Part shown: positions 17,652 through 20,641 of the stretch, piece after piece
Numbering within the stretch: position 1 is the stretch's first letter
Layout of the letters: every line of letters starts with the position of its first letter
From: an uncultured Lachnospira sp.
Lineage (GTDB): Bacteria > Bacillota > Clostridia > Lachnospirales > Lachnospiraceae
Assembly (NCBI GenBank): GCA_949002095.1
Contig: CARJMT010000007.1
Span: forward strand, 70,024-134,023
Direction: 5' to 3'
DNA: 64,000 nt
Program-made: the position numbers and the translations under genes
Notes under the pieces: model-generated
Seen by the model: only the letters and a program-made list of their open reading frames with translations
The model's database searches: none
Told to the model about the DNA's origin: nothing

Positions 17652-17696
17652 AAAAAGAGGAGAAATAGCCGGCACTATCTCTCCTTCAATTTTTTA
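17651..17696. terminator. Bidirectional intrinsic terminator at a convergent gene junction
   Basis: Hairpin aggagaaatag / ctatctctcct (10 of 11 bp) with loop ccggca; flanked by an A-run on one side and a T-run on the other. Confidence 0.65.
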
Positions 17697-17989
17697 AACA
17701 CTTTATTGGCAATCATAATAATCTCTTCTCCATATGTTGCAATTAGGTCAGCGAGCAATTCCTCTTGCTCCTCAGTTAGGTCTACATCATATGAGAACAT
17801 TGCTGCGTGTGTTATTTCATGGCATAGGACTTTCTTTAAGAAAAATCCATGTAAAGTATTGTTGATGTAAATGGTTTTATCATTATCATCACAGGTTCCT
17901 ATAGATAAGGAGCCGTCACTTCTATAAAGCATAGGATGATATTCTGGTACGAATTTCACGCACCATTCTTCGTTATTTATATTGAACAT
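17675..17989 (-). CDS. Putative zinc metallopeptidase (HExxH)
   Basis: CHEITHAAM motif; 104 aa. Confidence 0.4.
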   Translation of the reverse strand: MFNINNEEWCVKFVPEYHPMLYRSDGSLSIGTCDDNDKTIYINNTLHGFFLKKVLCHEITHAAMFSYDVDLTEEQEELLADLIATYGEEIIMIANKVFKKLKER

Positions 17990-18594
17990 TATTTAATCTT
18001 TGAAGCCAATATAGATAACTTTTGCTGTAATACAGTTTTTTCTTCTGGTGAAGCGTCAGCAATCATCTCAGTAATGTCTTGAGATAATTCTTGTAAATAT
18101 TTCTCCAATTCTTTCATCTGTGCTGGGGTTCCTTGATGAAGTTCTTTAGATTCCATATAATTCTTTCTACTAATTGGACTCTTTCCTTCTCTTGCGTCCC
18201 TAATTTCCATTGGATACTTATTTCCTCTTTCGGAATCTCTATAATCTTCTTCTCTACCCCAATCTCTATCTTTTCCCTCTTGTCTGCGCATTCCGCCTCT
18301 GTAATCCATTCCTCTTCCATCATAGTACATGCGACCATGGTCTCTATCCATATCGCGATACTCATGATATGAAGGCATTTGCATAGGCATTGGATATATA
18401 TGCTTAGAGTGTTTCTCTTCTTCCTCTTTCTCTTTCATGGCTTTAGTAATGCTACAATAGTACATTGCTTCTTCCATGTCTTTTACCATATCTACGACTT
18501 CACCAAGTTCCTTAGCATCTACATTCTTCAAGTCTCCTATTTGTGACTCTACGGCGCATAGGAGAGTGTCTTTTACGTGTTTTAATCTTTCCAT
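17989..18594 (-). CDS. Hypothetical protein with a central Arg/Gly/Asp/Tyr-rich low-complexity region
   Basis: DRDHGRMYYDGRGMDYRGGMRRQEGKDRDWGREEDYRDSERG; coiled-coil-like N- and C-terminal ends. Confidence 0.4.
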   Translation of the reverse strand: MERLKHVKDTLLCAVESQIGDLKNVDAKELGEVVDMVKDMEEAMYYCSITKAMKEKEEEEKHSKHIYPMPMQMPSYHEYRDMDRDHGRMYYDGRGMDYRGGMRRQEGKDRDWGREEDYRDSERGNKYPMEIRDAREGKSPISRKNYMESKELHQGTPAQMKELEKYLQELSQDITEMIADASPEEKTVLQQKLSILASKIK

Positions 18595-18605
18595 GATTTA
18601 CCTCC

Positions 18606-19028
18606 TTACGCAACTCTTTCAATAATTAAATTAGCATTCTGAACATCTACTGCTCCTACGCTTGTATTTCTCACACTAACTTGTGTGCAACATCCTGCTG
18701 GTACGTCTAGGAAAACTCCTCCCGCAACATTAAAGTACTCTCCAACTGCGGCTGGTGTTACTATCATATTTGTGCTATTGATAGCTTCTCCATTAGATGC
18801 AATAGCAAAAGAGATAGATCCTACTGTTCCACCTGTTGGAACTGCAATATTTCCGCTGAAAAATACTCTAAATCTTGCGCGGCACTGTTTCGTAATGCCG
18901 CGCAAAGTAACTAACCCACTACCTTCGCGATGGATTATGGAGCAATTTCCGCAGACTGGTTCATCAGTGAACAATACATTTTGATTAAGCGCAACCGTTT
19001 GGTTCGCAACTGCTGTAAATTCAGCCAT
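18606..19028 (-). CDS. Hypothetical Ala/Gly/Val-rich protein (possible jelly-roll / C1q-like fold; speculative)
   Basis: ORF with RBS; 140 aa; no diagnostic motif found. Confidence 0.35.
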   Translation of the reverse strand: MAEFTAVANQTVALNQNVLFTDEPVCGNCSIIHREGSGLVTLRGITKQCRARFRVFFSGNIAVPTGGTVGSISFAIASNGEAINSTNMIVTPAAVGEYFNVAGGVFLDVPAGCCTQVSVRNTSVGAVDVQNANLIIERVA

Positions 19029-19066
19029 TCTTATTTACCTCCAAGTATAGTTTTAATTAGTTTAAA

Positions 19067-19930
19067 TTAGGCTACACCGTTGCATCCGCAACCGCATCCA
19101 TAATTATTCAATCCAATACCATAGCTAGCCTGATAAGGTGAGCAGGTAATATAAGCAGGGATTGGACATGGACGTAGTTGGTCTACTAAATAAGTGTTCT
19201 GTGCTGCCTGGCTTGCTGCCAATTTCAAGTTCTGATTTTCAGCTTGTAAGCTAGAAATCTTATCTTGTACTAAGAAGTCTAAGATACTTCTTGTGTTAGC
19301 ATTGTTTGTGTCGATAATATCTCTTGTGGTATTCTGAACAGTGTTCTGAATTGCACAAGTGTCTGTAGCCATGCGATACTCAATATCTTTCTGACCAGCT
19401 CTATTATCGCAGCAGCATTGTGCTAACTGAGCCTGAATAGCGTTAGTGTTCTGCATATTTCCTACTGTGTTATCAAAGATATCTCTTTGGATAGCATTAG
19501 TGTTCTGCATATTAGCTACATTTACGCTATTGATACCTGCTTGTGTCTGATAACCTAAAGTACATACTGCGTTATCTACACCAGCAAATCCGTTAGTCAG
19601 AGCATTTTGAACGCCTGCAAAACCATTTAACAAGTTTGTATTTTGTGCGTAGAAGCCATCACACAATCCTTGCTGGATGCCACGGATTCCGTTCTCCATT
19701 TGACTAAAGTTCATGTCCTGACATAAGTCAGCTCTGGTTAAGGCACCCTGAAGTCCGTTTCCACCGAAACCTCCGAATCCACCATTACCCCATCCGCAGA
19801 ATACGAATAAGAATAAGATGATAATCCACCAGGCTCCATTACCCATGAAACCGTCGCCATAACCTTCATTTCTTCCGCCTGTAGCAGCAGCGATGTCTGC
19901 TAGGCTATAACCTCCGTTTGAATTAAACAT
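19067..19930 (-). CDS. Hypothetical membrane protein with a Gly-rich N-terminus, one TM helix, Asn/Gln-rich internal repeats and a Cys-rich C-terminus
   Basis: WWIIILFLFVFCGW TM segment; duplicated NMQNTNAIQ and NGFAGV(Q/D)NA units; CGCGCNG at the C-terminus. Confidence 0.4.
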   Translation of the reverse strand: MFNSNGGYSLADIAAATGGRNEGYGDGFMGNGAWWIIILFLFVFCGWGNGGFGGFGGNGLQGALTRADLCQDMNFSQMENGIRGIQQGLCDGFYAQNTNLLNGFAGVQNALTNGFAGVDNAVCTLGYQTQAGINSVNVANMQNTNAIQRDIFDNTVGNMQNTNAIQAQLAQCCCDNRAGQKDIEYRMATDTCAIQNTVQNTTRDIIDTNNANTRSILDFLVQDKISSLQAENQNLKLAASQAAQNTYLVDQLRPCPIPAYITCSPYQASYGIGLNNYGCGCGCNGVA

Positions 19931-19962
19931 AAGGCACCTCCATAAAATTATTTATTAAAAAT

Positions 19963-20208
19963 TTACAAACCAAACATCTGTTTAAAATTTGCAAATTCTT
20001 TATCATAATCTTTACCTTGCTCTTTTAACATATTTCTAGCAATCTGTTCAATATCGCTAGTTCTATTTTCTTTAGCAAGATTTAATAAGTTAGCAGCCAT
20101 AGGATTATTTGAAGATTGTTTCTCCAACATACCCATTACAAACTGCTGTGGGTTTCCGCCATTACGAAGAAACTGCATCATTTGCATTGGATTCATATTA
20201 GAAGTCAT
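19963..20208 (-). CDS. Hypothetical small protein
   Basis: ORF only. Confidence 0.35.
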   Translation of the reverse strand: MTSNMNPMQMMQFLRNGGNPQQFVMGMLEKQSSNNPMAANLLNLAKENRTSDIEQIARNMLKEQGKDYDKEFANFKQMFGL

Positions 20209-20641
20209 TCTTTCCTACCTCCATTTTCTTTCCTTGATGTTGTTCAGGTTGAGGAGTTAAAAACATATCTAATTTAGTTTCTAAAACTTCAATCTTCTTT
20301 AATAATAAATTAGTTAGTTCTCCATTATCTGGAACCACTGTAGGCTCTGGCATAATAGGTCTAAAAGTAATAACACTTGTAGTTCCATTGTTATTCCATG
20401 ACTTGATATAAATTTCACTCAAGTCTGCCTTTGGGAATATTCCATAGCCGCCAATAGGAACCTCAGTAGCTTTAACTACATCTGCACTATCTACTATCTT
20501 ACCATTTAAGGGTTGCGGCTGTTGGCTTTGTGGCTGCATTGGTTGAGATAGAAATTGTTGAGGTTGCGGCTGAGGCACATATTGATTTACATATCCATAA
20601 GGATAATTACCTAAATAACTGGGATTGTTTAAATAATTCAT
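20198..20641 (-). CDS. Hypothetical protein with a Gln/Pro-rich N-terminus
   Basis: PQPQPQQFLSQPMQPQSQQPQP; RBS caggagg upstream. Confidence 0.4.
   Translation of the reverse strand: MNYLNNPSYLGNYPYGYVNQYVPQPQPQQFLSQPMQPQSQQPQPLNGKIVDSADVVKATEVPIGGYGIFPKADLSEIYIKSWNNNGTTSVITFRPIMPEPTVVPDNGELTNLLLKKIEVLETKLDMFLTPQPEQHQGKKMEVGKNDF

Follow-up and report, generated by a model that had tools for sequence, protein, structure and literature searches.

Several described systems resemble, each in part, the locus reported here. Morons, or conversion cargo, at the end of a phage late operon include bor and lom of phage lambda and the toxin genes that follow the lysis module in prophages of Firmicutes. 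Holin T of phage T4 combines a short N-terminal tail and one transmembrane (TM) segment with a large, cysteine-containing C-terminal domain, and it has two small soluble partners, RI and RIII, which are dispensable accessory factors of lysis timing. The Rz-type i-spanins combine an N-terminal membrane anchor with coiled-coil segments carrying cysteines and with a proline-rich end. Among exosporium proteins, the proline-rich N-terminus of BclA docks on ExsFA. We analyzed a 64,000-nucleotide (nt) stretch of DNA (the window) from an uncultured Lachnospira sp. (GenBank assembly GCA_949002095.1, contig CARJMT010000007.1, positions 70,024 to 134,023 of the forward strand), which belongs to an SPbeta-like phage and contains a block of six minus-strand genes, here called O1 to O6 (Table 1). 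The block turned out to be a cassette that is dispensable, portable, and probably autonomous. Our leading, still tentative, reading is that its products form an assembly anchored to the membrane of the infected cell, which would assist the terminal phase as an accessory.

Starting from O4, we collected cassette loci on 26 viral contigs from IMG/VR and on 80 genome contigs with iterated profiles and counted the components in the 73 loci that had full flanks. The order O6-O5-O4-O3-O2 was kept in nearly all loci of both sets, as well as in several phages from GenBank. O2-type proteins were encoded in 69 of the 73 loci, O6 in 67, and a small beta protein following O4 in 68, of which 49 had the type found in the window and 19 an unrelated type, O3b. 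An O5-type protein (O5 or its alternative O5b), encountered in 54 loci, always lay between O6 and O4. A putative peptidase was likewise encoded in 54 loci (O1 in 29; P5, a 127-amino-acid [aa] Cys-His-Asp protein unrelated to O1, in 26; both in 1). O1 and P5 are thus nearly mutually exclusive, which suggests that they are equivalent. Among 8,000 candidates scored, O3 and O4 each had at least about 8,000 significant homologs, and O6 had at least 5,902 (at least 5,900 clusters at 90%). The relatives of O4 formed 1,988 clusters at 50% identity; the best 150 were all 88 to 333 aa long, and neither these 150 representatives nor the loci contained a fusion protein of O4. The homologs of O3, O4, and O6 carried no names in their sources, apart from one annotation-pipeline label, and no Pfam domain was found in any of them.

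The position of the cassette varied from phage to phage. In the window it closes the late operon, after a diversity-generating retroelement (DGR). In many phages and prophages it lies directly downstream of holin and endolysin genes, in others between a MuF-like gene for a minor capsid protein and the genes for scaffold and capsid, in phages of Clostridium perfringens and Bacteroides uniformis in the recombination region, and in the crAss-like phage cr52_1 among tail genes. In some loci it is preceded by a small sigma-region-4 or helix-turn-helix (HTH) gene at the place where the window has a noncoding leader. Most hosts assigned to the loci were Clostridia, and the hosts were mainly monoderm Clostridia and Bacilli. 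Homologs of O4 were also present in Bacteroides phage C3_41T2LP (profile E value, 1e-39) and in crAss-like phages (cr52_1, 3e-24); there, a small beta-rich protein comes next, and after it DUF7841 plus a segment rich in Arg, Asp, and Tyr (R/D/Y). Among the SPbeta-like relatives of the phage, the closer ones keep the cassette next to a RuvC-like gene, with or without a DGR, and in more distant ones that have no cassette, the late operon ends in tail genes.

The dispensability of the cassette follows from a comparison of C. perfringens phages. Phage HMD-PC1 (L002) carries O6-O5-O4-O3b-X18, and this block forms a clean 2.16-kb indel relative to phiCP13O (L119), with flanks matching at 88% and 98%; it is the only large difference between the two phages across the region. 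Four further phages (phiCP34O, phiCP39-O, phiCP9O, and phiCP26F) matched HMD-PC1 in two pieces, just as phiCP13O did, and the block was absent from them; near the site, the five phages without it are 88 to 98% identical to HMD-PC1. Phage vB_CpeS-17DYC is another carrier. Since the indel is clean and separates near-identical, viable phages, the cassette is dispensable. In-frame TAG codons occurred at Gln positions of O4, O6, and O3 homologs in five loci (L014, L022, L025, L027, and L030), an indication of TAG-to-Gln recoding in these phages, and because of these codons the cassette genes in question would be translatable only under the phage code. In L014, TAG codons were found also in genes of the opposite strand, so that the recoding is wider than the cassette. 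Free-standing endonuclease genes of the HNH/NUMOD type were located in or near the cassette (18 genes in 15 loci), and such endonucleases could help the cassette to spread among phages. In L118, the lysis genes are separated from the cassette by a small block on the opposite strand, which carries an AcrIC5-like (anti-CRISPR) gene.

In the window, all six open reading frames (ORFs) lie on the minus strand at positions 17675 to 20641, where the first-pass annotation, made from the letters and an ORF list, had placed them. Each of O2 to O6 is preceded by a ribosome-binding site of the GGAGG type (AGGAGG in the case of O6); the reading frames of O1 and O2 have 1 nt in common, and those of O5 and O6 have 11 nt in common. 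We considered that the ORFs could be spurious and rejected this on the strength of the ribosome-binding sites, the translational coupling, and the conservation of the six genes. A foreign origin of the block was likewise rejected: its raised GC content comes from the Gly/Ala-rich proteins, and the GC content at third codon positions is not above that of the neighboring genes. Because intrinsic terminators bracket the six genes, the block is probably one transcription unit of its own. The 240-nt leader showed no convincing promoter, the weak sigma-70-like matches there being no commoner than in shuffled sequence. The hairpin of the downstream terminator fills the 23-nt gap between O1 and the convergent RuvC-like gene and may terminate both operons. 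An 89-aa ORF (20687 to 20956) overlaps the upstream terminator and the AT-rich leader and is probably no gene.

Table 1 Features of the six-gene cassette, its surroundings, and related loci (positions refer to the window unless another sequence is named)
Feature	Sequence	Position	Strand	Description
O1	Window	17675-17989	(-)	104 aa; minimal HExxH...E putative zinc metallopeptidase, translationally coupled to O2
O2	Window	17989-18594	(-)	201 aa; helical toward both termini, with a low-complexity center rich in R/D/Y/G/M
O3	Window	18606-19028	(-)	140 aa; predicted stand-alone beta jelly roll of the BclA C-terminal domain (CTD)/ExsFA/C1q/TNF type, no signal peptide
O4	Window	19067-19930	(-)	287 aa; single-pass membrane protein (predicted)
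O5	Window	19963-20208	(-)	81 aa; N/M/Q-rich, predicted cytoplasmic
O6	Window	20198-20641	(-)	147 aa; Q/P/Y-rich N-terminus, conserved beta-rich core, C-terminal helix; first gene of the cassette
Downstream intrinsic terminator	Window	17658-17685	(-)	End of O1; 12-bp stem, 4-nt loop, then T-run
Noncoding leader	Window	20642-20882	(-)	AT-rich, about 240 nt between upstream terminator and O6; presumed promoter region
Upstream intrinsic terminator	Window	20883-20905	(-)	Directly after the DGR reverse transcriptase gene; 10-bp stem, 3-nt loop, then TTTTTTTT
Direct repeat	Window	19437-19459 and 19491-19513		Inside O4; two 23-nt copies, one mismatch, 54 nt apart
DGR reverse transcriptase	Window	20898-22169	(-)	In the minus-strand late block
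DGR template repeat (TR)	Window	22377-22501
DGR accessory gene	Window	22602-23045		Read as Avd type from its position
DGR variable repeat (VR)	Window	23286-23410		3' end of the 270-aa target gene
Tape measure gene	Window	39388-48183	(-)	2,931 aa
Cassette block	HMD-PC1 (L002)	4005-6166		O6-O5-O4-O3b-X18
DUF7841 and R/D/Y-rich segment	L030	3099-3698		Example
DUF7841 and R/D/Y-rich segment	L054	9222-9953		Example
DUF7841 and R/D/Y-rich segment	L029	5711-5944 and 6006-6407		Example
HNH/NUMOD-type endonuclease gene	L029	2919-3539		In or near cassette
HNH/NUMOD-type endonuclease gene	L091	8733-9374		In or near cassette
AcrIC5-like gene	L118	8339-8527		Between lysis genes and cassette

The hydropathy profile of O4 showed one hydrophobic segment (about aa 33 to 47) with Gly-rich stretches on both sides; the protein has 13 cysteines and ends in a CGCGCNG tail. 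Its layout comprises an acidic Gly-rich N-tail, the TM segment, linkers rich in GW/GF, and a long helical region that is rich in N/Q/A and contains a CCC motif; an RPxPxPAY motif and the Cys/Gly tail complete it. Hydropathy and composition thus agree with the earlier description of a TM protein having a Gly-rich N-terminus, an Asn/Gln-rich part, and a CGCGCNG tail, while the tandem nucleotide repeat suggested for about 19420 to 19500 is not tandem: Tandem Repeats Finder detected no array at the site, and the two copies of the direct repeat (Table 1) encode the peptide NMQNTNAIQ twice. Among the positions invariant in 36 aligned homologs are the CCC motif (C172 to C174) and P254, P256, and P258 in the context of RPxPxPAY, besides several others. 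The AlphaFold2 model, with a pLDDT of 45, has helices at 75 to 115 and 144 to 251 and was too poor for a fold search; the long modeled helix would fit, as expected, a coiled coil needing partners. In 88 homologs, the N-tail has a mean length of 33 residues with 1.0 K+R versus 3.3 D+E and so is net acidic, and the 25 residues after the TM segment have a mean of 0.9 K+R versus 1.3 D+E, a bias that weakly favors a topology with the N-terminus out and the C-terminus in. O4 belongs to phrog_16490, to which PHROGs assigns no function; no holin family matched it in Pfam, NCBIfam, or PHROGs, and searches of the PDB, both with the single sequence and with a profile, gave nothing significant.

For O3, the predicted structure was a confident all-beta jelly roll (pLDDT, 87.7). 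Its best structural matches were the CTD of BclA and ExsFA, both of the exosporium, with TNF and C1q scoring nearly as high, and the compact fold superposes on members of the C1q/TNF/BclA-CTD superfamily. Sequence identity to the BclA CTD, F-BclA, and ExsFA (BxpB) is only 12 to 16%; no Pfam family, those of C1q and the BclA C-terminus included, matched at an E value of ≤1, and there was no sequence match in the PDB. The prediction is that of a monomer, and a trimer may be assumed by analogy with relatives of the C1q/BclA type. Across the 34 closest homologs sampled, O3 is 69 to 89% identical. It had been listed as an Ala/Gly-rich protein in a module described as one of low-complexity, membrane, and Cys-rich proteins, but with a minimum 25-residue entropy of 3.05 bits it is not of low complexity; the compositional descriptions hold for parts of O2, O4, and O6. 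Profile-profile comparison revealed no homology of O3 to the alternative beta protein O3b, or of O3b to the neighbor proteins in Bacteroides and crAss-like phages, and therefore the slot after O4 is filled by proteins that are unrelated or have diverged beyond recognition. A profile search of the PDB with O3b returned nothing significant.

The HExxH motif that had marked O1 as a peptidase was confirmed, with H57, E58, and H61 invariant in 28 homologs together with E77, the downstream Glu that would serve as the third zinc ligand. Matches of the O1 profile to structures in the PDB were weak (minigluzincin MJ1213, E value of 0.016; Wss1, 0.022; IrrE, 0.22), and those to Pfam stayed below the cutoffs (Peptidase_M78, 19.6 bits, cutoff of 22; SprT-like, 18.7 bits, cutoff of 25.6); O1 also matched phrog_1233 (1.5e-14). 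In P5, the invariant residues are D16, C17, R20, H97, and D108, and no family matched it in scans of PHROGs, Pfam, and NCBIfam (37 members; E value of ≤5) or in a profile search of the PDB. The compositions noted earlier for O2 (Arg/Gly/Asp/Tyr-rich) and O6 (Gln/Pro-rich) hold for definite segments, i.e., residues 66 to 135 of O2 (R, 18.6%; D, 14.3%; Y, M, and G, 11.4% each) and residues 1 to 46 of O6 (Q, 24%; P, 20%). O6 falls into phrog_21718, again without an assigned function, and a profile search of the PDB with it gave nothing significant; O5 matched no family in Pfam, PHROGs, or NCBIfam. O2, O3, O5, and O6 have no hydrophobic N-terminus, and none of the five proteins besides O4 has such an N-terminus or looks like a lipoprotein-type partner. 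Taken over the six proteins and the alternative members, the Pfam, NCBIfam, and PHROGs scans yielded only function-unassigned PHROGs, the weak zincin matches of O1, and DUF7841 for O2c; the models of PADLOC-DB matched neither the six proteins nor four alternative cassette members (E value of ≤0.01). DUF7841 occupies the O2 slot in the Anaerotruncus locus L054 (E value of 4e-21), crAss-like cr52_1 (gp22, 9e-43), and the B. uniformis phage (5e-16), joined or adjacent to an R/D/Y-rich segment resembling that of O2; O2 of the window itself did not match DUF7841. Beside O4 homologs in phages of Bacteroidota and Clostridia, DUF7841 and the R/D/Y-rich segment are fused in either order or encoded by two neighboring genes.

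The reading that we favor, a portable accessory cassette whose products form a membrane-anchored assembly, would work as follows. O4 would span the cytoplasmic membrane, its short acidic N-tail facing outward and its helical, Cys-rich domain of about 240 residues lying in the cytoplasm, where it would oligomerize into a stalk formed by a coiled coil. To this stalk O3 (a trimer by analogy) would attach, possibly at the RPxPxPAY motif and the Cys/Gly tail, a docking modeled on the binding of the BclA N-terminus to ExsFA. O2, O5, and O6, being of low complexity and without a signal peptide, may join the scaffold as a matrix, and O1 or P5 may be the processing enzyme that trims or activates one of the components. 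The assembly would influence when, or how efficiently, envelope breakdown and release take place and would not be the lysis machinery itself. Action in the terminal phase, inside the infected cell, is suggested by the fact that the cassette closes the late operon, that it often directly follows lysis genes, and that it is TAG-recoded in some phages.

Several points weigh against this reading and keep our confidence in it low. None of the components matched a lysis, membrane-remodeling, or other characterized family in the family scans, the PDB, or PADLOC. We infer the topology and oligomeric state of O4, its contact with O3, and the substrate of O1, with a model of O4 that reached a pLDDT of 45. 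The tail of O4 does not covary with the type of beta protein that follows, so there is no coevolution signal for a contact between O4 and O3. In some phages the cassette is surrounded by head genes, and in those of C. perfringens and B. uniformis by recombination genes, locations that give no hint of a role in the terminal phase, and the upstream terminator together with the lack of an identified promoter leaves the timing of expression in the window unproven.

A different explanation, to our mind unlikely, is that the cassette encodes a dispensable addition to the virion, be it a fiber, a decoration, or packaged internal proteins, with O3 as the knob and O4 as the stalk. The fold of O3 is that of BclA and of many phage fiber tips, depositors labeled the crAss O4 homologs "spike protein/glycoprotein," and the cassette is found within the head cluster of Dulem virus 35, L115/L116, and L079, among the tail genes of cr52_1, and just after the tail-fiber and DGR genes in the window. 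It is shared, however, by phages as different as the long-tailed SPbeta-like ones, crAss-like ones of the podovirus type, and small ones whose capsids are unrelated, which excludes a dependence on any single virion lattice, and in the C. perfringens and B. uniformis phages it is placed in the recombination region. Moreover, a membrane segment is present in O4, the conservation of O3 in the homologs sampled far exceeds what is usual for receptor-binding tips, and the terminators isolate the cassette from the structural operon.

The first-pass annotation had noted that the window has no recognized endolysin or holin and had proposed that the six genes may encode a noncanonical lysis system. We scanned 35 ORFs of the window (20 on the late strand with PHROGs only, 9 others with Pfam only, and the 6 of the block with both); no endolysin or holin family was present among them or within 10 kb past each end of the window, about 65 kb of the approximately 149-kb genome lying outside this range, and the observation thus stands for the region covered. 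In a stand-alone lysis system replacing the missing pair, O4 would act like holin T of T4, as a large holin with one TM segment, while degradation of the wall would fall to O1 or P5. With this would agree the single TM segment and large domain of O4, the invariant Cys/His/Asp set of P5, the frequent adjacency to lysis genes, and the location at the end of the late operon, the position of blyA-bhlA-bhlB in SPbeta. Nevertheless, we consider this explanation improbable. No domain of a peptidoglycan hydrolase (amidase, lysozyme, CHAP/NlpC-P60, or M15/M23) and no holin family was detected in the six proteins by Pfam, NCBIfam, or PHROGs, nor was a hydrolase domain seen in P5 (37 members; E value of ≤5), and the architecture is the same in monoderm and diderm hosts. 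Other phages carry the cassette together with complete canonical lysis genes. In representative genes located upstream of it, Pfam identified Amidase_2, Phage_lysozyme2, CHAP, PG_binding_1, and holin families, and endolysins and holins were the commonest annotated PHROGs of the three genes immediately upstream in 50 loci. In L117/L118, a GH25/M23 endolysin and a holin_5_2 holin are followed by the cassette. The prophage of Anaerotruncus colihominis DSM 17241 (L054) has, in this order, holin-like and lysozyme-like ORFs (read by eye), an O1-like gene, an HTH gene, and the cassette, after which the genes read, also by eye, as host ruvCAB; Vescimonas fastidiosa has an annotated holin and amidase, the cassette, and then host genes. 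Since SPbeta-like relatives free of the cassette simply end the operon with tail genes, its slot is not a "lysis slot" in that lineage. The coexistence, the variable position, the clean indel in the C. perfringens phages, and these relatives leave the lysis proposal without support. Of the findings named in advance as refuting it, a canonical pair outside the window and ORFs of known, unrelated families, only half has been borne out: canonical lysis genes lie beside the cassette in other phages, none having turned up in the part of this genome covered, and no known family is matched by the ORFs.

The other option put forward at first, host-interaction or sporulation-like cargo, fares well as far as cargo is concerned, the cassette being portable, dispensable, and probably autonomous, and poorly as far as a spore role is concerned, given the occurrences in B. 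uniformis and crAss-like phages. In its specific form, lysogenic conversion, a coat- or exosporium-like set of cytoplasmically made proteins rich in Cys, Tyr, Gly, and Gln, together with a protease for their maturation, would alter the surface or spores of the host to the benefit of the lysogen, which we regard as more doubtful still. The likeness to spores is real at the level of the fold, since O3 is matched best by exosporium proteins, even if TNF and C1q score nearly as high. The soluble partners have no signal peptide, as is the case with coat proteins; the extreme prophage end, after the lysis genes and beside host DNA, is a classic cargo slot; and most assigned hosts are Clostridia. Yet neither Pfam nor NCBIfam revealed sequence-level kinship to any spore protein, O4 and its DUF7841 partners are present in phages of nonsporulating B. 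uniformis and in crAss-like phages, TAG-recoded genes would be untranslatable under the host code, and the cassette closes the late operon in the window.

We give equally little credence to a further-reaching possibility, namely, a previously unrecognized, self-assembling layer resembling an exosporium, anchored in the membrane and cross-linkable through cysteines, for which O4 would supply the stalk, O3 the trimer, the low-complexity proteins the matrix, and the peptidase the maturation protease, the whole being exchanged as a unit by phages of Bacillota and Bacteroidota. If this were true, it could provide a protective or adhesive coat for progeny, cell remnants, or vesicles in the gut. Least probable of all is a membrane-tethered compartment or shield, in which the low-complexity proteins would condense on O4 and, much as p16.7 of phi29 does, organize the replication or assembly of the phage or shield its DNA from host defenses: the R/G/Y/D-rich segment of O2, the Q/N/P-rich O5 and O6, the AcrIC5-like gene near the cassette in L118, the neighborhood of recombination and replication genes in phages of C. 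perfringens and B. uniformis, and the replication genes abutting the cassette in the window would suit it, but the idea comes from composition, Pfam and PADLOC detected no DNA-binding or antidefense family, and most loci lie in late or structural regions.

The cassette is situated, as the first-pass annotation had it, between a DGR and the replication genes. The minus-strand late block runs from 64000 down to 17675 and encodes the portal, virion proteins, the tape measure, and tail proteins. It converges with the plus-strand genes, which extend up to 17651 and serve replication and nucleotide metabolism (DnaB-like helicase, PolIII alpha subunit, guanylate kinase, and PIF1/UvrD-like helicase families); the ORFs near 12755 to 17651 read by eye, without a family scan, as NrdD, NrdG, dUTPase, and a RuvC-like nuclease. 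That the phage is SPbeta-like follows from the Pfam families assigned to its genes on a 148,947-bp metagenomic contig representing the same genome: YonG_N, YonD_N, YonB, and YomW on the late strand and YorF and YorH on the replication side, where gyrase, ligase, DnaB, and PolIII alpha are also encoded. Exact copies of the proteins of this phage are present on about 100 contigs. The DGR was confirmed by its TR/VR pair, which is 86% identical. It spans 20898 to 24084, and most relatives that keep the six-gene cassette do not have this DGR; in crAss-like cr52_1, a DGR lies just upstream of the O4 homolog.

The cassette matters for several reasons. O3, O4, and O6 each stand for thousands of homologous clusters in public metagenomes that have neither names nor Pfam domains. 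Its fixed order is found in SPbeta-like giants, in 40-kb temperate phages of Clostridia, and in C. perfringens phages, and O4 with DUF7841 is found in Bacteroides and crAss-like phages. A unit that moves across virion types and host phyla and is strongly conserved, even though phages can do without it in the laboratory, is probably of importance to the life of phages in the gut. The question is testable, since the C. perfringens phages with and without the cassette are natural near-isogenic pairs, and cultured carriers include the B. uniformis phage and prophages of A. colihominis DSM 17241, V. fastidiosa MM35, and Enterocloster hominis.

Within the library covered, literature searches returned nothing on these families, the cassette, or DUF7841, and from its composition and lack of characterization we would rate the cassette as lying outside every described kind of phage system. 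O1 resembles the minigluzincins (MJ1213 and projannalysin), M78 ImmA/IrrE, and SprT/Wss1 in having HExxH plus a downstream Glu within about 100 aa; its matches to these families lie below the curated cutoffs (E values of 0.0008 to 0.02), and, unlike ImmA, it is not paired with an adjacent repressor gene. O3 has the same jelly-roll fold as the BclA CTD and ExsFA but differs in having no Pfam match and no collagen-like stalk on the same chain and in being encoded by phages, including relatives of those of nonsporulating hosts. The cassette proteins differ from the spore coat and exosporium in that they match no coat families of Pfam or NCBIfam and that the relatives of the cassette are not confined to spore-forming hosts. 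O4 is similar in architecture to T4 holin T, also with respect to the small soluble partner proteins, but it shows no sequence or profile similarity to that holin, its charge bias suggests the opposite topology, and it coexists with ordinary holins. With the Rz-type i-spanins it shares the anchor, the coiled-coil-type segments, the cysteines, and the proline-rich end; it differs from spanins in that there is no gene for a lipoprotein partner, the hosts are mainly monoderm, O4 is more conserved, and the charge bias suggests that the large domain is cytoplasmic. The cassette, flanked by terminators, is probably an autonomous unit. Like morons, it lies at the prophage end after lysis genes, varies in position, and is present in one and absent from another of two near-identical phages. 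Unlike them, it also occurs in phages without signs of lysogeny in the stretches seen (crAss-like), is TAG-recoded in some, and consists not of one or two genes but of five to seven in a fixed order.

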